Of a DNA stretch of 64,000 nucleotides, positions 2,450 through 53,694 are shown one piece after another (position 1 is the stretch's first letter; every line of letters begins with the position of its first letter). Source of the stretch: Escherichia phage ELT1. A program made the translations under genes and the position numbers. Location of the stretch: sequence record MZ892903.1. The stretch is one strand, 5' to 3'. The notes under the pieces were generated by a model that saw only the letters and a program-made list of their open reading frames with translations, had not been told where the DNA came from and did not search any database.

Positions 2450-2907
2450 TAATATGCCTGCAAAACAAATTTAAAATTATCAGCCAACATACGATTCATT
2501 TCTTCAAGCGTTTGATACTCAGAATGATGATTACGAGTAAACGCTAAAGCTAACTGACCTTTTCCAAATCCCGTCGTCAGAGGTTTCATCTTAGAAGCAG
2601 GTAGATAAAATACCGTGTATGGAACATTGTTATTTGCAATAGTACGCGCAAGCTGAGATCGACGCTGGCGAATATGACTTAAAACCGCGCTGAATCCTTG
2701 CTTAGAACGCTGATTACCTACATAAAATCGTGCAGACACACATGGATTACTAAATGGACGACCATCTAATTTACTCACTAAAAAGTAAAATCCAGGTTTA
2801 GATAAAATATCTTTATGCGGAGTTCCCAAAAACCACTCACCGTTCTTGATTGTACCAATAACAGTTGCGCCTGCATTATTCAGATCAGTAACAGTCATAT
2901 ATTTCAT
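2449..2907 (-). CDS. ndd: Ndd nucleoid disruption protein, ~152 aa
   Basis: ORF 2449-2955 trimmed to [13 protein letters not shown]... start with GAGG RBS; matches recalled T4 Ndd. Confidence 0.85.
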
Positions 2908-6233: not shown

Positions 6234-8411
6234 TTAGGCCGCAAGGGCCTTCATAGTTTTAGCGATTTGGGAAACTTCATCATCACTTAAAGAGTTGCGA
6301 TAACCGATGAAGTCAGAAACAATACGGAATTTCTTGGTAAACTCAGCAACCATTTTATCACTGTTTTTTGAAGCATTACGTGATAATTCATCAAAGAGAT
6401 TAGTTACTGTCCAGATGTCATGACCGATAGTATCTTTTCCACCATTAAAATATACACCCTGTAATGAACTAACCATATTAGCGAGTCGTGTATATTCTTC
6501 AGAAACTTCATCTACACTGAAGTACTTCATCATAAAATCTAGCTCAGGATACTTGATAATTTTATCAATATATCGTTTAGCTGAACTTGAATAACCTACA
6601 TACTTATCATAATCTACATCATCAAAAGCATCTACATATAAATCACGCAAAGCTTCAAAAATACATTGGCACTGACCGAGTTCTTTTACCTTTTTCTGTA
6701 AAAGCGGACGAATAACATAAAATTCATTAATGCCAATAAGATTAGCCATACGAATCAAAATATTCATAGATGGATGACAAAGAGATGTAGTACCATCCAT
6801 AGAGAAAATATCAGAACGATGCATATACGCTACATAACCAGTAATTTCATCTGCTTCTGACGTAAGTGTAAACAGTTCCTCTTTTTCCCAGCGCCCATCT
6901 TTAATTTCAAACTTAAATGCTGTAGCAGCTTTAGGACGAGGAGCTTTACTTTTTACTGCCTTTGGAATATAACTTTTAACTAAAGCTTCAATTTCTGACA
7001 AATAATGAATGTTAACTTCATCATTTTCAAACATTGCCATAATATCAGGGAGTAAATCAATCTGTGATTCTACTTCCGGATTAATAAACAGAAGACGTTC
7101 GTTATGATGAATATTCAGAGTGTTATTAAATTCACTATCATCTAATGCACGTGCTAATCCACGGACAATATTAACACGATTTTTAATATTATCAATAACG
7201 ATATTAATTTTTGTTGTATTAATACCAAACAGACGATAACTTGACGCAACGGCTGATGTTTCATGACTTTGCTTAATGCGCTTCAGTCGAGGGTCAAGAT
7301 TTACTTCATACACAACTCCTGCATTACATAACTTACTGTCAGGTTCAAACATGCTCTGCATCTTTTTATATGACAGATTTTTAGTCGTGAATTTGACCGA
7401 ATTACTAATCATATAATCTCGAGCAGAATATCCCATCTTCATTAATTCGCGATATGTGTGACGAGGAGATGTAGATTCTTTAAATCGTTTTACATCTTCA
7501 TTAAATGCTTTCTCACTAAGCTCTTTAACTCGTTCAATAATATTTTTACGAGTGCGATCATCTAATGAAAGAGCTTCACGTGATGGAGCAATATCAAGTG
7601 AACCCATTGGAAATTTAATGTAATTCACTTCATTACGAATGCTTAGCCAGTTACGGTCTCTAATAACACCATCGATAGGATAAACAATACCACCATAGAT
7701 AGCATATAATCCACCACGATCTGGCCAGTATCTTTCTGGATTTACGCCGTAATAGTCATCAAAATCCGGAAAATAATCAATTTCGCGGTCAAGACCATTA
7801 ATGATAGCCAAATCTTTGAATGGTCGCATGATATAAGAAACTTCATAAGCAAAGTTTCTAAAGTCTTTTTCTTCAACTGGAACTACGATTTCAATACCAG
7901 TTTTATCATCTGGACCCATTTCTTTTACGAATGTAGGTTTAATCTGTGGTCCATCACCATCCATGTAAGCTACATAACCACGAATTTCACCTTTATGATA
8001 CGAAGTAATACTAAACGTATCAGTATAACTAAACGGAGATTTAGAACCTAAACCAAATCCGCCAATGAAATCGTTAGATTCAGCCTTAGATGAACTGAAG
8101 TATGAATTATACAGCCCAGGAGAATTATCATCACCCTGAATATCAAAATCACTCATACCCGGACCAAAATCTCGACAAACAAATCGTGGATCTAAACGTC
8201 CAGGAACTTGAATGATAAATTTTTCAGGATTTCCATTGAGAGCATGGGCATCAATCATGTTAGTAATCAATTCACGGACTACTGCGCGAATCTTGTTTGT
8301 ATACAAATCAGATGACAGAATTTTAAATACTTTAGGAGATGCTGTGATGCTAAATGCTTTTGATTTAGAACCATTACCAAGAATTGTTTCTTTTTCAGTG
8401 GTGATAATCAT
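6234..8411 (-). CDS. rIIA: rIIA protein, 725 aa
   Basis: 725-aa ORF; matches recalled T4 rIIA. Confidence 0.95.
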
Positions 8412-8421
8412 AATTTCCTCA

Positions 8422-8625
8422 TTAATTCATATTACGCTTAATAACTTCAGCAACTTCTAGTAGTTCATCTTTAGTTGCGGTGTCGGATTGAATTTTATCT
8501 CTAATATCCTTAAAGCGGTTTTTAAACTCTTCGGCTTCTCCCATATCGAAAAAGCGTTGAATGATTCTATATTCTCGATGAACTGCTTTATCAAAAAGTT
8601 CTAAATTTACTTTATATGATTTCAT
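8422..8625 (-). CDS. hypothetical protein, 67 aa (rIIA.1 position)
   Basis: ORF track. Confidence 0.45.
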
Positions 8626-8647
8626 TTCAATATCCTCATTTGCCCAA

Positions 8648-8685
8648 TTAATTATACCACATCCTTGTGGTAAAGTAAACTACTG
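8648..8685 (-). promoter_or_regulatory. T4-type early promoter inside 3' end of gene 60
   Basis: GTTTAC (revcomp) 8675-8680, -10 TTATACCAC 8652-8660, CCACATCCTTGTGG palindrome. Confidence 0.45.
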
Positions 8686-9212
8686 GCTCATCCATTCTTT
8701 ACGAAGGTCAGCGTTATCTCCCATGAGCATTTCAAAAAGCTCTTTCCAATTCTCAGGAAGTTTAACAACATCATAAACTGGGTTCTGAATCATTTCACGG
8801 TATTCAGATTTTTCCAAAGAGCCAAGTCCCTTAATATAACGGATGCTATGTTTAGGTAGAGCATCTTTGGCACTCTCATATTCAGCGACTGTATAAAACC
8901 ATTCTTGTTTTTTACCGACCTGAGCGATGATTACAGGAGTTTTGACAAAGCGAATTCTTCCTTGTTCAAACAGTTCTGGCCAATTACTAAAAAATCCGAG
9001 CAGAGAAGGATAAATAGAACCTAATCCAATAATCTCTTAATTATGAGGTATTTCAATGGATAGCCCGAAGGCTATCCATCGTGATCTGCGTCTGTCATAA
9101 TAGCGACATTCGCATAGTTCATTGAAGAGGATTTAATAGAACGACGAACATTGTTCTGCAATTTATATTTTTTCATATCAACGCTAGAAGAATCAATTTT
9201 TACAAATTTCAT
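8680..9212 (-). CDS. 60: topoisomerase II subunit gp60 with 50-nt translational bypass; coding = complement(join(8683..9024,9075..9212)), 160 aa
   Basis: codons 1-46 MKFVKIDSS...IMTDADHDG end GGA then TAG; translation resumes after landing GGA with LGSIYPSLLGFFSNWPELFEQGRIRF...WMSQ. Confidence 0.9.
9025..9077 (-). other. gene 60 bypass element: take-off GGA, UAG stop, stem-loop, 50-nt coding gap, landing GGA
   Basis: minus strand GGA TAG CCTTCGGGCTATCC...ATTATT GGA TTA; 50 nt from after take-off GGA through landing GGA. Confidence 0.9.
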
Positions 9213-10011
9213 TATACACCTCATAGAACTTTTCATCAGGAATCCAACCGCGTTTAAATTCATTAAATGCTCGGCCGAATAATTTTGAATTCACAGTTAT
9301 ATTATTAACTGATTTCCATTTAGCAACTCCCGTTCGTTTATAATGATCGGGGTCATATTTCGTGACGTACCATTCATATAAATTTGGTATTAATTTTACA
9401 GCCTCTGGATTTGTCGCTGATTTATTATACCATGGTTTCGCTTTTTCAAGTTCAGCTGCTTTTGCAGTAGCAGCAACAGTATTTCCAATACCAACTAATT
9501 TTTCAGCTTTAATGCGTGGATCATTAACATGAAGACGAAAAACTTCGCCTTTTTCATTTTTAAAGCATGTCATGCCTTTAATTCCAGGAAGCTTAACACC
9601 TTTATTAACACCGCACCATTCCTTTGGGTTAAATGATCCTTTAATTAATAAGGCGCATTTACCCGATTTAATACTTCTCATTAAAACTTTATCTTTCATA
9701 AAGTTTTTTGACCATTCAGATACTGCTCTTTGATGGTAAATTCTAGCAATTTCATATAATTTACTAGAACGTAAATATTTTTCAGTGTTTAACATTCTAT
9801 TCATCGCATATGCCATTTCACGATTACGATGAATTTTATATAGTAGAAAATGTGCTAAAAAGTGTTCACGAAAAGTCAGTTTCACCAAATTTTCTTTATC
9901 ATCAGAACCTCCCATTGATCTTGGAAGGATATGGTGAATTTCACCCTTAAATTTAGAAACGCGGGTTTTACCCCGCACTATTAAGTCATTATAGATTTTT
10001 TCGTAATTCAC
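9193..10011 (-). CDS. mobA: HNH homing endonuclease (MobA-like), 272 aa, GTG start
   Basis: HHILPRSMGGSDDKENLVKLTFREHFLAHF HNH motif; lies between 39 and 60, overlapping both. Confidence 0.75.
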   Translation of the reverse strand: MNYEKIYNDLIVRGKTRVSKFKGEIHHILPRSMGGSDDKENLVKLTFREHFLAHFLLYKIHRNREMAYAMNRMLNTEKYLRSSKLYEIARIYHQRAVSEWSKNFMKDKVLMRSIKSGKCALLIKGSFNPKEWCGVNKGVKLPGIKGMTCFKNEKGEVFRLHVNDPRIKAEKLVGIGNTVAATAKAAELEKAKPWYNKSATNPEAVKLIPNLYEWYVTKYDPDHYKRTGVAKWKSVNNITVNSKLFGRAFNEFKRGWIPDEKFYEVYNEICKN

Positions 10012-11539
10012 CTACTGTTATCCATTTACCATTAATCTGTACTTCATCATTTTCATTTACAATAATTGTATCACCATTTAGTTCGAGAGTAAACCACTCA
10101 CCGTCTTCTTTTTCTTCAAACGCCTTTTCACCAAGAACTAATCCAGTGATTGCGCAAATATCAAACAGTTCTTTGTTTTTAAGCATGTCAGCATATGACA
10201 TACCCCAGCTATTAAGAACTTTACCGCGCAATGGATAACCACCATGAAGTTCTTTATCGCGAACATCAATAAGATATCCGATAGCAGAATCACCCTCAGT
10301 CAAGAAAAGAGTAGTGTCAGCATCTTTACCACAAAGATTCGCTTTGATATGTTTATGAACCTTAGCTTTAGAAGCCTTTTTAGCTGCTTTAGTTTCTGCT
10401 GCTTTTTCTGCCGCCAATTTACGAGCCAAAGCAGCTTCAATAATTGGCATTAAAATTGCTTCATTATTTAAAATAGCACGTGAAATCTTTTTAGCATCAA
10501 GCTGAATATGACTACGGATTTCACCAAATGGAGAAGTCAAACGCTCTTTAGTTTGAGAATCAAATCGCATGTTTTTCATATCACGAACAAACATAACGAT
10601 AGTCAAACATTCTTTAACACGTGCTTTAGTTACATCAATTTTGAATTTACGTTTGATTTGCGGAATAAGGTCTTCACAAATATCATCCATAACACAGTCA
10701 ATGTGATGGCCACCATTCTTAGTATGAATGTTATTGACGTATGTTAATTGACGAAAACCATCGGGTGAACGACCGACCGCAATAGAACAGTTTTCTTGTT
10801 CTTGAACGATGGCGTGTTCATCATATTGGCGTGCATATTTCTTAAAATTACCCTGAACCTTTTTACCATTAAAGGTAAATTGAATATCAGGATAAACTAC
10901 TGCAAGTGTCTGGAGACGATCTAGTGTAATGTCAAGATAAACTTGGGACAGCTCATTAGTTTCAAATGACATAAAATCAGGAATGAAAGTAACACGAGTT
11001 CCTTTCCATTTTCCAGGAATAGTTTCCCATGATTTATTTTCCATGCCATTTGAACAACGAACTACAATATTATTTTGACCATCACCAGTTTCACCGACAA
11101 ACATCACAGAAAAAATGTTTGTCAAACTAGAACCAACACCATTCATACCGCCAGTGACGCGTTCTTTATCATCACCGAAGTTACCACCTGCTTTTGGAAT
11201 AGTCCAGGCAGCAACTGGACCAGGAATTTCTTCACCGGTAGGTGTTTTGACCATCGCTTGTGGAATACCGCGACCGTTATCTTCAACTGTTACTTGATTG
11301 TTTTTAATAGTAACATTAATTTTATTTGCGAATTTAAACTTAGTACGAATACCTTCATCTACTGAGTTATCGATAATTTCATCAATAAGCTTAACAAGAC
11401 CAGGTACATACTGAACACTTTCCCATTTACCAAACAGAAAGCGCTCATGCATTTCATTAGCAGAAGAGCCAATATACATGCCGCTACGCTTTTTGATATG
11501 TTCAATATCGCTCAGAATTTTAATTTCATTCTTAATCAT
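9989..11539 (-). CDS. 39: DNA topoisomerase II large subunit (GyrB-like ATPase), 516 aa
   Basis: ORF trimmed to MIKNEIKILSDIEHIKK... ATG with GAGGA RBS; matches recalled T4 gp39. Confidence 0.95.
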   Translation of the reverse strand: MIKNEIKILSDIEHIKKRSGMYIGSSANEMHERFLFGKWESVQYVPGLVKLIDEIIDNSVDEGIRTKFKFANKINVTIKNNQVTVEDNGRGIPQAMVKTPTGEEIPGPVAAWTIPKAGGNFGDDKERVTGGMNGVGSSLTNIFSVMFVGETGDGQNNIVVRCSNGMENKSWETIPGKWKGTRVTFIPDFMSFETNELSQVYLDITLDRLQTLAVVYPDIQFTFNGKKVQGNFKKYARQYDEHAIVQEQENCSIAVGRSPDGFRQLTYVNNIHTKNGGHHIDCVMDDICEDLIPQIKRKFKIDVTKARVKECLTIVMFVRDMKNMRFDSQTKERLTSPFGEIRSHIQLDAKKISRAILNNEAILMPIIEAALARKLAAEKAAETKAAKKASKAKVHKHIKANLCGKDADTTLFLTEGDSAIGYLIDVRDKELHGGYPLRGKVLNSWGMSYADMLKNKELFDICAITGLVLGEKAFEEKEDGEWFTLELNGDTIIVNENDEVQINGKWITVGELRKNL

Positions 11540-49726: not shown

Positions 49727-50197
49727 TTAATCATGTTTCCACACCCCATCGGTATTTGACCAAAGTCGCTGATTATCTGATCCTCGCCACAGCTTTTTGG
49801 TCGGAAGATTTTTCTCATACTTCCCATCAATAATAACATCAACATATTTAAGCATTTCTAGTTGTTTAATATCTTCAAACTTATATCCTGTCCACAACCA
49901 GATATCTTTCTCCGGAAATCTTGCTTTAACCCAAGAAACTAAATTTGAAATCTCTTCTCGGTTCTGTGGATAAAGTGGGTCACCACCGGTTAAGGTAAGG
50001 CCTTGGATATACGATTTGCTTAAATGGGACGCAAGTTCTTTAACGGTATTCATAGTGAATAACTGTCCGTTACGAGCATTCCAAGTACTACGATTATAAC
50101 AACCTTCGCATTTATGCAAACATCCAGTGACGAAGAGAACGACCCTGCATCCAGGACCATTAACAAAGCAGCACGGGTATATTCTATCATAATTCAT
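49727..50197 (-). CDS. nrdG: anaerobic ribonucleotide reductase activating protein (radical SAM), 156 aa
   Basis: ORF trimmed to MNYDRIYPCCFVNGPGCRVV...; cysteine cluster CLHKCEGC. Confidence 0.85.
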   Translation of the reverse strand: MNYDRIYPCCFVNGPGCRVVLFVTGCLHKCEGCYNRSTWNARNGQLFTMNTVKELASHLSKSYIQGLTLTGGDPLYPQNREEISNLVSWVKARFPEKDIWLWTGYKFEDIKQLEMLKYVDVIIDGKYEKNLPTKKLWRGSDNQRLWSNTDGVWKHD

Positions 50198-50819
50198 CTT
50201 TATATTTCCAAGTATATCCCTTATGAATAGATTGAATTCCTTTGCAACATTTATAAACAGCAGAATGAAAAAATCCTGCATTTCTTATTTCAGTTGCTCC
50301 AGTTAGTTCTATTGTATTTCCGTCTGGTGAATAGCCAATAACCGTTTTGGTGTTAAAGCGATTTCTAGAACTATTTTTGATATGCTCTTTATGACTAGTA
50401 GACAAAGTTCTTCCTGTTAGCCCATCAGATATCCTTTTTCCAAAATCATCAGGAAGAGTTACTTTAGACCTAGCTATGCTCATTAGCTTCTTAGTTTTAT
50501 CGCTTCTTTTTGTGCCACGCTGATTTTCAAATTTCTTAGCTTTTGCATACGCGTATTGTGAAGAAGTAACTTTTCTATGCTTACTATTACTCATTATCCA
50601 ATATGCATCATACATCTTTCCACCACATATTTTAGCCAATAAATGGTGAGCAGTATAGTGGGCCTTATAAGTTAAAAATACTAAGTTGTCTAAATCATCT
50701 GAACCACCCATGCTTCTTGGAATTATATGATGAAGTTCATACCCGGCTTTAGTTTGACGGGGCTTAGATGGGTGTTCAGCAGAATTAACTAGATTTGAAT
50801 AGATTCTGTCATAATTCAT
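50187..50819 (-). CDS. HNH homing endonuclease, 210 aa
   Basis: MNYDRIYSNL... and HHIIPRSMGGSDDLDNLVFLTYKAHYTAHH; free-standing between nrdG and nrdD. Confidence 0.75.
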   Translation of the reverse strand: MNYDRIYSNLVNSAEHPSKPRQTKAGYELHHIIPRSMGGSDDLDNLVFLTYKAHYTAHHLLAKICGGKMYDAYWIMSNSKHRKVTSSQYAYAKAKKFENQRGTKRSDKTKKLMSIARSKVTLPDDFGKRISDGLTGRTLSTSHKEHIKNSSRNRFNTKTVIGYSPDGNTIELTGATEIRNAGFFHSAVYKCCKGIQSIHKGYTWKYKDEL

Positions 50820-50831
50820 TGGTGTTTAACC

Positions 50832-52111
50832 CTATGCATGTTTTACTCGTTTTACCATTTCTTTCATTTTACCTAAATTCCATGGGACAACGCTAGGAGT
50901 TCCAAGATATCCGCATGTTCTTCTTATGGTGTTCATCTTTTTAGGATCAGTTTCTCCACAAATAGAACAAACAAATCCGTTTTCAGTAGGAGTCATTTCA
51001 TGGGTACTTCCACATGTAAAACATTTATCTACTGGCATGTTAACACCAAAATAATCTAAATGTTGCGCAGCATAATCCCATACGGCCTCAAGACCTTTTA
51101 AGTTATTTTTCATATCAGGAAGCTCAACATAAGAAATGTGACCACCTGTCGCAATGAAATGATATGGCGCTTCACGAGAAATCTTTTCAAACGGAGTAAT
51201 ATTTTCTTCTACTGAAACATGGAAACTGTTAGTGTACCAGCCTTTATCAGTAACATCTTTTACACTTCCATATTTTTCTGTATCGAGTTTACAGAAGCGA
51301 TAACAAAGGTTTTCAGCAGGAGTCGAATATAAACTAAAAGCAAATCCGGTTCTTTCAGTCCACTGTTTAAGATGGGCATTCATTTTAGTTAAAATTTCTT
51401 GTCCAATATCACGACCGACAAGAATATTCAATTCATGAATACCAATGTATCCTAAAGACACTGAACTTCTACCGTTTTTAAATAACTCAATTATGTCGTC
51501 ATCAGGTTTAAGACGAACCCCGAATGCACCTTCTTGGTAAAGAATAGGAGCAACAGTCGCTTTAACTCCTTTTAAGGAACTAATTCTACACATCAAAGCT
51601 TCAAAACACAAATCCATTCGTTCATTGAATAATTCAACAAATTTCTGTTCATTGAACTGTGTTCCAATATAAGAATCTAATGCGATACGAGGAAGATTCA
51701 GTGTTACAACACCAAGATTATTACGTCCATCAAGAATTTCATTACCAGTCGAATCTTTCCATACACTCAAGAAACTACGGCAACCCATTGGAGAAACAGG
51801 AACAGATGAACCAGTGATAGCTTTATTGTTCTTAGCTGAAATAATATCAGGATACATTCTTTTGCTTGCGCACTCTAGAGCAAGCTGCTTAATATCATAG
51901 TTCGGATCGTCTTTATAAAGATTAACACCTTCTTCAACGAACATAACAAGCTTAGGGAAAATAGGAGTTATCCCATCACGACCAAGACCTTTAATACGAT
52001 TTTTCAGAATTGCTTTCTGAATCATTCGTTCAGTCCAGTCAGTTCCCGTACCAAATGTAATTGTTACAAAAGGCGTTTGTCCATTAGAGCTGAAAAGTGT
52101 ATTTACTTCAT
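50832..52111 (-). CDS. nrdD: anaerobic ribonucleotide reductase NrdD, exon 2 (426 codons incl. split Tyr)
   Basis: glycyl-radical C-terminus and zinc ribbon CFTCGSTH...CSICGE; exon 1 + exon 2 = 605 aa as recalled for T4 NrdD. Confidence 0.85.
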
Positions 52112-53156
52112 CATTATATTCAGCATGAGTCGCAAATTCATGCCCGTTTATATGAAACAACAAAATTTGGATAGTCCATAGATATGCAACGTTCTTTTAT
52201 AGTGCTAGGATGAAAATTTAGCGCTTTAGCTGCTTCTATATAAGACGTATACTTAATACCGTCAACAACCACATATTCAGGAACTTTATGAATAGTAGTC
52301 TTAATACTCAAAACAAGAGGATGAGTTTCGACTTCACTTTCAGTGCAATTTAAATATTCCGCTGCTTTTTTAAAACTTCTAAAAGTTTTATTTTTAAGCT
52401 TTATCGATACTTGTTTTTTACTTTTTCGACTATTGACATTATTTTGCACATGTTCCTTAGATCTTCCGTTTTTAGCATAATATTCAGCTACAGAAGATTT
52501 TATATTGTTTTTATGAGATTCGGATAACACTTTACCCTTATGAGCATCTCTTAATTTTTGAATATGTTCTTCAGTATCCGGATGCTTATAAAACTTTTTA
52601 CCGCCTATGGATTTATTTAAACATTTTTTGCTATAAAAATATTTACGTATGACCTCTTCTTCATGTTTTAATGCATCTTTATAACTATCAAATGTTTTTA
52701 AAATTATCCATTTAGTAGGTGTATCAGTTTTTAAGCGTTCATTTATATACTTAGATGACGTTGTGTAAGTTTTCCAGTTTGTGGGCTTGTTTTTAATTGT
52801 TCTAAATTTTTTATAACCGATATAAATGTCGCCATTAGAAAACTTAACTAAGTATGTAAATGCGTCTTTATCTTTTATTTTAGTACAACGTCTTTTTATC
52901 CATTTCATTGTTTCACCTCGTATTCATAAGATAATCTTATTTATACAAGATGACTGCTGCATGTCGCCATGCAGATTAGACTATATCTTCATCTTTCGAT
53001 GCCGGCCGTTTCGAATAGCATTAGCTTCTATTCTACACCGCTACATTCATCACGGTTAGTCGTTAGGCATTTAGTTCAAAAGAACATTTAGCACGGGATT
53101 GTCTACTAGAGAGGTTCCCCGTTTAGACCGGTTTTACATGAGCCTGAATTAAATTA
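52112..53156 (-). mobile_element. group I self-splicing intron in nrdD carrying the I-TevII ORF
   Basis: ~1.0-kb non-coding interruption of nrdD with internal GIY-YIG ORF; junction placed by homology (AFQAYE|YEVNTLF vs E. coli AFQALEYEVNTL); last intron base is G. Confidence 0.65.
52138..52908 (-). CDS. intron-encoded GIY-YIG homing endonuclease I-TevII, 256 aa
   Basis: YLVKFSNGDIYIGYKK motif; GAGGTGA RBS; inside nrdD intron. Confidence 0.85.
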   Translation of the reverse strand: MKWIKRRCTKIKDKDAFTYLVKFSNGDIYIGYKKFRTIKNKPTNWKTYTTSSKYINERLKTDTPTKWIILKTFDSYKDALKHEEEVIRKYFYSKKCLNKSIGGKKFYKHPDTEEHIQKLRDAHKGKVLSESHKNNIKSSVAEYYAKNGRSKEHVQNNVNSRKSKKQVSIKLKNKTFRSFKKAAEYLNCTESEVETHPLVLSIKTTIHKVPEYVVVDGIKYTSYIEAAKALNFHPSTIKERCISMDYPNFVVSYKRA

Positions 53157-53694
53157 ACTCATACGCCTGGAATGCATCGTATACGTCTTTTTCTGTTTTA
53201 GATTGGGCATAATTCAACGCATCAGCGATTTGCCATTTTTCTGCATCCTCAATATGTTTTGCATAGGTGCGTTTAACATAAGGAGAAAGTACTTTATCTA
53301 CATTCGCAAAAGTCGTTCCGCCATATTGATGGGAAGCAACCTGCGCAGTAATTTGTGCCATAATTGCAGTAGCAACACCGATTGATTTAGGAGTTTCAAT
53401 CTGTGCATTACCAAGCTTAAATCCGTTCTCAAGCATTCCTTTTAAATCTACTAAACAGCAATTAGTAAATGGAAGAGCAGGGGAATAATCAATATCGTGC
53501 ACGTGAATAATTCCGCTTTCATGCGCTTTCATAATAAAAGACGGGACCATATTTTTGGCAATGTGTTTAGACACAATACCGGCCATAAGGTCCCGTTGAG
53601 TTGGAAAAACACGAGAATCTTTATTAGCATTCTCGTTTAAAAGGTCTTTATTAGTTTTATGAATCAATCCTTCAATTTCTTTTTCAATTGTCAT
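53157..53694 (-). CDS. nrdD: anaerobic ribonucleotide reductase NrdD, exon 1 (179 codons + first base of split Tyr)
   Basis: MTIEKEIEGLIHK...DVYDAFQAYE; ORF runs into intron and stops after ELI. Confidence 0.85.

Follow-up and report, generated by a model that had tools for sequence, protein, structure and literature searches.

Gene 60 of Escherichia phage ELT1, very probably a functional copy of the T4 programmed translational bypass on a MobA element

Introduction

The hop in gene 60 of phage T4, known since 1988, is the case on which the concept of programmed translational bypassing was founded. In T4, purified E. coli ribosomes bypass the gap in defined mRNAs in vitro, the take-off complex has been imaged by cryo-EM with the gap RNA in place, and mass spectrometry finds a single product with landing at GGA. 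Residues Y16, R24 and S28 of the T4 nascent peptide contact the exit tunnel, and the published description of T4-type signals expects a Shine-Dalgarno-like GAG 5-7 nt before the landing codon. Cassettes of this type have take-off and landing codons that match and are decoded by one and the same tRNA, on either side of a non-coding gap, which measures 50 nt in clade 1 of the family.

With respect to the origin of the mobile element on which the hop resides, Bonocora and colleagues are said to have proposed in 2011 that the element family descended from a degenerate group I intron. Homing by MobA and the mobility of the cassette have been known since 2011, as related in papers citing that work. 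The family of bypass cassettes was surveyed more recently, with phage HY01 as the worked example and member of 'clade 1', and the element was reported to be 1097-1106 nt long (Manning & Atkins, 2022, bioRxiv 10.1101/2022.08.31.505936). Here, gene 60 of Escherichia phage ELT1 was compared with these systems.

Results

The window, i.e., the analysed stretch of 64,000 nucleotides of the ELT1 record MZ892903.1, belongs to a Tequatrovirus (T4-like), and its closest match over 25 kb in the GenBank phage collection was phage JEP6 with 97.1% identity. On the minus strand, rIIA (6234-8411), rIIA.1 (8422-8625), gene 60, mobA (9193-10011) and gene 39 (9989-11539) follow each other, and this gene 39/mobA/gene 60/rIIA.1/rIIA order is that of phage T4. 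The topoisomerase II large-subunit gene is split into gene 39 and gene 60 by a MobA homing-endonuclease element. As judged from the break-points of BLAST alignments and from views of the junctions, the element lies at 9016..10122 on the minus strand, including the gap and the recoded codons GGA UUA GGU UCU after it, and the size of this insert (~1.1 kb, window ~10122-9016) agrees with the reported range. Gene 39, assigned from the ORF list, alignment and Pfam, codes for the N-terminal part of the large subunit (516 aa, Pfam matches HATPase_c and DNA_gyraseB), the last ~43 aa of its product being an element-encoded C-terminal extension. The mobA gene was recognized from the ORF list and Pfam as an HNH homing-endonuclease ORF of 272 aa starting at GTG; it overlaps with the last part of gene 39 and the first part of gene 60, shows colinearity and no indels when compared to mobA of 17 other phages, and its Pfam HNH match is weak (20.1 bits, just below the cut-off of 21.4). 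The mobA ORF is intact in ELT1, whereas it is broken in the T4 record NC_000866.

The coordinates of gene 60 were all verified on the minus strand by reading the sequence, and all features described below lie on that strand. The gene starts with ATG at 9212-9210, and 6 nt 5' of this codon stands a Shine-Dalgarno-like GAGG (9219..9222) with a putative role in initiation. ORF1 (9075..9212), which is encoded by the MobA element and was delimited by translation and identity to T4, comprises codons 1-46 (MKFVKID...TDADHDG; full reading MKFVKIDSSSVDMKKYKLQNNVRRSIKSSSMNYANVAIMTDADHDG) and ends with the take-off codon GGA (Gly46, 9075..9077), directly followed by UAG (9072..9074). Following the convention of the T4 misc_feature, the untranslated 50-nt coding gap extends from UAG through the landing codon GGA (9025..9074, with the landing codon at 9025..9027). 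The distance from the take-off GGA (9077-9075) to the landing GGA (9027-9025) is thus exactly 50 nt, and the gap sequence was checked for further GGA triplets within it with negative result. The resume codon is UUA (Leu47, 9022..9024), and the post-landing reading from there, LGSIYPSLLGFF..., continues for 114 codons (9024-8683). This ORF2 (8680..9024, codons 47-160 plus TAG at 8682-8680) codes for the C-terminal part of the TOPRIM domain according to translation and Pfam, and the product of gene 60 amounts to 46 + 114 = 160 aa. A UAA at 9039-9037, within the gap, closes the ORF2 frame upstream, and between this stop and position 8817 the frame holds no ATG, GTG or TTG. The catalytic DxD motif is located in ORF1 and the remaining TOPRIM domain in ORF2; Pfam searches recognized TOPRIM_C on the joined 160-aa product and gave no match for the 46-aa piece by itself.

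This layout bears out the initial annotation, made from the letters alone, which had described GGA at codon 46 followed by UAG and a stem-loop, correct to the base (9077-9075 and 9074-9072), a matching GGA exactly 50 nt downstream (found at 9027-9025) and a completed topoisomerase subunit of 160 aa, now seen as 46 + 114 codons and as 160 of 160 residues of T4 gp60. It had also stated that callers of contiguous ORFs miss the 3' segment; indeed, the mechanical ORF list of gene 60 contained just a 63-aa piece and a 45-aa piece, and most of the 18 cassette-bearing GenBank records retrieved have the gene split into fragments.

All signals experimentally defined in T4 were found in ELT1 gene 60, with the 5' stem-loop, the mini Shine-Dalgarno sequence and the 3' stem-loop at the published T4 positions. 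The nascent-peptide bypass signal, as defined in T4, is KKYKLQNNVRRSIKSSS (codons 13-29, 9126..9176); the KKYK motif, Y16, R24, S28 and the other residues of the T4 peptide are present, ORF1 being identical to T4 at 46 of 46 positions. The 5' stem-loop (9087..9114) ends 9 nt before the take-off codon, is identical to that of T4 and folds with -10.1 kcal/mol (z = -3.2). The take-off hairpin has the core GGAUAGCC-UUCG-GGCUAUCC and, by folding and covariation, extends to 12 continuous base pairs (9054..9081, UUCG tetraloop at 9069-9066) with a minimum free energy of -20.2 kcal/mol (z = -6.5), a stability reached by none of 200 shuffled sequences. The apical part of this extended stem-loop is the A-site hairpin, and the whole structure spans the take-off codon, located in its 5' arm, the UAG and both positions that differ from T4 (9058 C and 9055 U). 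The mini Shine-Dalgarno GAG (9034..9036), whose role was defined in T4, lies 6 nt 5' of the landing codon in AU-rich surroundings. Folding further indicated a weak 3' stem-loop (approximately 8994..9011), a putative barrier to forward slippage about 14 nt past the landing codon, with an energy of -1.7 kcal/mol (z = -1.4) that is not significant by itself; its position fits the T4 description and, as far as the T4 alignment extends, the sequence is the same in both phages. Rfam holds no family for the bypass element.

The T4 gene (NC_000866, misc_feature 2803..2852) shares with ELT1 the locus, the gene order and the 50-nt distance as well as the GGA/UAG take-off site, the UUCG hairpin, the GAG mini Shine-Dalgarno, the GGA landing codon and the UUA resume codon, and its record labels the homologous 50 nt 'non-coding translational bypass region'. 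In an alignment of 241 nt covering the upstream flank, ORF1, the gap and the start of ORF2, ELT1 and T4 are distinguished by two substitutions within the gap, U to C at nt 17 and A to U at nt 20 (the U of UAG being nt 1). No nucleotide differences from T4 were seen in ORF1 and in the 15 nt that follow the landing codon, and 48 of the 50 gap positions are shared, which answers the check by nucleotide alignment to T4 gene 60 that the initial annotation had proposed. The joined gp60 is identical to T4 gp60 (PDB 8yo3) over 160 of 160 residues, and its residues 1-46 correspond 46/46 to chain C of PDB 5np6, the nascent T4 chain in a cryo-EM structure of the ribosome at take-off. Owing to the two substitutions, ELT1 has G-C where the extended stem of T4 has a G.U pair, and G.U where T4 has a G.A mismatch, and the 12 continuous pairs of ELT1 have an energy of -20.2 kcal/mol as compared to -14.7 kcal/mol in T4. 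Moreover, the T4 gap has a second in-frame UAG, which is lost in ELT1 owing to the change at nt 20. The match with the T4 gene 60 bypass stated in the initial annotation is supported by the same locus, near-identical nucleotides, the bypass region annotated in T4 and the junction DADHDG/LGSIYPS, which is continuous in RB14.

In RB14 the topoisomerase subunit is uninterrupted, and the junction ...IAIMTDADHDGLGSIYPSLLGFF... is read there without a break. Residues 1-473 of ELT1 gp39 are 99% identical to residues 1-473 of RB14 gp60plus39, and residues 27-160 of the joined gp60 align without gaps across DADHDG/LGS to residues 472-605 with 96% identity. At the DNA level, the ELT1 insert of ~1.1 kb takes the place of ~51 nt of the RB14 gene; an element-encoded homologous region of 46 nt (9121-9076, 78% identity) substitutes for the deleted RB14 segment, and RB14 has one single Gly codon as the counterpart of take-off and landing GGA alike. 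A 701-nt query matched 498 phage records, 41 of which covered most of the query, while the remaining records match only from window position 9015 downstream because they carry uninterrupted gp60plus39. If ORF2 is read as continuing ORF1, the result is in accordance with RB14, where the sequence is uninterrupted. Variation of ORF2 among 18 cassette phages is overwhelmingly synonymous, 53 of the 76 variable sites being third codon positions, and the synonymous/non-synonymous differences from ELT1 are 9/0 for T4, 13/0 for F26 and 11/0 for e11/2. The sequence comparison thus indicates purifying selection on ORF2 and, since ORF2 is under such selection and has no start codon of its own, it must be translated.

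The 66-nt core from take-off to landing is 100% identical in HY01, PEC04, pSe_SNUABM_01 and JEP6 and 97% identical in T4, with E-values of 9e-27 to 2e-23 that are not due to chance; the gap alone is identical to the former four phages at 50 of 50 positions. The IMG/VR viral contigs gave no match when scanned for the exact pattern GCAGATCACGATGGATAG, and therefore all relatives were drawn from the GenBank phage collection. Over the whole element of ~1.1 kb, ELT1 differs from HY01, JEP6, PEC04 and pSe_SNUABM_01 at 4-6 positions, and these four phages have V11I and L18S in the nascent peptide, whereas ELT1 has the T4-type peptide. Three gap alleles occur among 19 cassettes, namely the T4-type ...CUAUCUAUAG..., the G50-type ...CUAUCCAUAG... 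and the window-type ...CUAUCCAUUG..., with extended-stem energies of -14.7, -17.0 and -20.2 kcal/mol, respectively; they vary at just those two positions at which the extended stem of T4 is not Watson-Crick paired. The combination of T4-type peptide and HY01-type gap was seen in ELT1 and in none of the 18 records compared, while HY03 shows the reverse combination (V11I/L18S peptide with T4-type gap). The occurrence of each peptide allele with each gap type in ELT1, T4, HY01 and HY03 implies that the element of 1.1 kb has undergone internal recombination or recurrent mutation. The ELT1 combination is a trivial allelic novelty. In the V11I/L18S allele, found in JEP6, pSe_SNUABM_01, HY01 and HY03, L18S lies in the KYKLQ part of the nascent-peptide signal. 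Variable sites number 3 of 138 in ORF1 as compared to 76 of 345 in ORF2, a contrast that may reflect a recent horizontal spread of the element, a dual constraint on RNA and peptide, or both.

More distant cassettes, in Salmonella phage S16, Proteus phage Pm5461, Acinetobacter phages fHyAci03 and Stupor, Aeromonas phage Aes012 and Shewanella phage Thanatos-1, are inserted at the same point of the TOPRIM motif. As in ELT1, the codons for take-off and landing are matched, the take-off codon is part of the 5' arm of a hairpin, a Shine-Dalgarno-like triplet precedes the landing site, and take-off is followed by a stop codon or, in Stupor, by the rare codon AGG. By contrast, their take-off codons GGU, GGG, GAU and GAC differ from the GGA of ELT1 (take-off/landing pairs GGU/GGC, GGG/GGA, GAU/GAC, GAC/GAC and GGU/GGU), their loops are GCAA or UUAG, the gap of the Aeromonas cassette is about 17-20 nt, and their N-terminal extension has only 52-59% identity to that of ELT1. 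In a loop-anchored alignment of 8 cassettes from 5 genera, a small sample from which the structure itself had been derived, the 12-bp stem was paired at 92.7% and 6 of its 12 pairs were changed on both sides, a level not attained in any of 500 shuffles, with slid registers reaching 21-43%. The third base of the take-off codon and its partner, for instance, occur as A-U, U-A and G-C. This covariation reproduces an earlier result (Manning & Atkins, 2022, bioRxiv 10.1101/2022.08.31.505936).

Public annotation of the locus is heterogeneous. In most of the 18 GenBank cassette records, gene 60 is given as two or three unrelated CDS, the fragments are labelled 'hypothetical protein', 'frameshift' or 'rIIA lysis inhibitor', and in some of them ORF2 starts at CTG. 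Among the 18 retrieved, only the records of T4 and HY01 connect the two segments over the gap of 50 nt and show a bypass region, the HY01 record (KF925357) already annotating the region of the 66-nt core as such; further T4 records and T4T also list a bypass feature, as seen among the matches.

Discussion

In view of its anatomy, the nearly complete identity to T4, a joined product colinear with uninterrupted homologues, the purifying selection on ORF2 and the stem covariation, all of them directly seen here, gene 60 of ELT1 is very probably a functional copy of the T4 programmed translational bypass carried on a MobA element. That the translation event takes place in ELT1 is suggested by the T4 experiments together with the near-identity to T4, and by analogy with the same experiments the ribosomes would be expected to slide over the gap with an efficiency of roughly 50%. 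We propose that ribosomes translate codons 1-46 of gene 60, whereupon the nascent peptide (KKYK...SSS) would grip the exit tunnel. At this point GGA would occupy the P site and UAG the A site, in which the apical UUCG hairpin would form and block the release factor, and the peptidyl-tRNA-Gly would unpair from GGA while being retained in the ribosome. The GAG mini Shine-Dalgarno and the weak 3' stem-loop may then act as a brake, the tRNA would re-pair at the second GGA and, in the last step, decoding would resume at UUA, yielding the 160-aa gp60 that completes the TOPRIM domain. No contrary sequence evidence against the bypass reading was found.

Three other explanations have to be weighed. The gene might be broken, the gap truncating gp60 at 46 aa, with ORF2 as an untranslated remnant and the phage using the host gyrase. 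The in-frame UAG at 9074-9072, further stops in all frames and the many public annotations that keep the pieces separate would be in line with such a loss; however, ORF2 is intact over 114 codons, its protein is 100% identical to T4 with 9 synonymous and 0 non-synonymous differences, at ratios similar to those for most of the remaining cassette phages, none of the bypass signals is lost, and the DxD motif in ORF1 is separated from the rest of the TOPRIM domain in ORF2. A broken gene is therefore regarded as highly improbable. A similarly low probability is assigned to the notion that ORF1 and ORF2 give two separate polypeptides without a hop, with ORF2 initiated internally at AUU after the GAG or at CTG. 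While the GAG and its AU-rich surroundings resemble a weak ribosome-binding site and some GenBank records start ORF2 at internal non-canonical codons, the ORF2 frame is devoid of ATG, GTG and TTG from the UAA at 9039-9037 to 8817, mass spectrometry of the T4 protein finds the single product landing at GGA, and the junction colinear with RB14 predicts a single chain. It is least probable, to the point of being almost negligible, that the 50 nt are removed from the RNA as a tiny intron, by editing or by transcriptional skipping and that an ordinary mRNA is then translated: despite an insert precisely bounded by duplicated GGA, the group I intron ancestry said to have been proposed for the element family and a genuine group I intron elsewhere in the window, a permissive Rfam scan of 8400-9500 recovered neither an intron nor another relevant family, 50 nt is far smaller than self-splicing introns, and in T4 it is gap-containing defined mRNAs that are bypassed in vitro and gap RNA that is imaged in the take-off complex.

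Two specific candidates were rejected. Group I introns have a conserved P3-P9 catalytic core and measure a few hundred nucleotides, and the gap was discarded as a self-splicing intron of this type as Intron_gpI had no match at 8400-9500 and the insert is just 50 nt. The permissive scan of this region gave only two chance-level matches, to a snoRNA and to atpB, whereas the same type of scan found the true group I intron at 52957-53192, which shows that the method works in the window. An ordinary +1 or -1 frameshift was rejected since the shifted frame is not open into ORF2: a one-base shift at take-off cannot reach ORF2 because the UAA at 9039-9037 closes the frame.

Returning to the bypass as the preferred reading, the bypass in ELT1 gene 60 is already known in the sense that an identical core is annotated in GenBank (HY01), and the ELT1 copy adds almost nothing scientifically beyond one more natural allele. 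Only the stem-perfecting substitutions and the loss of the second UAG are a mildly new point. The fact that both substitutions fall on the two imperfect pairs of the extended stem fits a functional stem. According to the folding model, they would strengthen the lower stem by ~5.5 kcal/mol and could change the kinetics, and we infer that the ELT1 gap allele should be at least as competent as that of T4. It is conceivable, although rather doubtful, that this gap allele with the T4-type peptide is a natural tuning allele that alters efficiency, landing fidelity or temperature dependence as compared to T4; if true, it would offer a ready-made natural test of the model in which refolding of the exiting mRNA drives forward sliding. 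Recognizing the hop matters mainly for correct annotation, and where it is overlooked, a T4-like genome seems to be without an intact topoisomerase subunit.

Two further phages deserve mention with regard to cassette variation. Salmonella phage GRNsp7 (ON720975, about 1427-1477) has a gap of 51 nt with GAGATTTATTGGA in place of GAGATTATTGGA, which puts the mini Shine-Dalgarno 7 nt, not 6, from the landing codon; this could be a real length variant, tolerable to a frame-independent hop, or a sequencing error. In Pseudoalteromonas phage vB_Psh_XG4 (PP712099, 1501-1770), a distant relative of the gene 60 N-terminal extension with 37% identity runs straight into the TOPRIM C-terminal part (...DQDPDGADIACLLIQFFSKWPDLF...) without stop or gap. 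This arrangement is reminiscent of those Aeromonas and Campylobacter phages for which it has been described that the 'element came and left' (Manning & Atkins, 2022, bioRxiv 10.1101/2022.08.31.505936).

Elsewhere in the window, a group I intron appears to interrupt the nrdD region (50187-53192, minus strand). Intron_gpI was recognized at 52957-53192 with 70.6 bits (gathering score 50) in a targeted Rfam scan, although the scan of the whole window at gathering thresholds had given 0 matches. A GIY-YIG-like ORF of 256 aa (52138-52908) separates the intron core from the C-terminal part of NrdD (50832-52163), which ends with the glycyl-radical motif RTCGYLG. Directly downstream, between nrdD and nrdG, a 210-aa HNH protein (MNYDRIY...HHIIPRSMGGSDD) is encoded at 50187-50819, which looks like a MobA paralogue.
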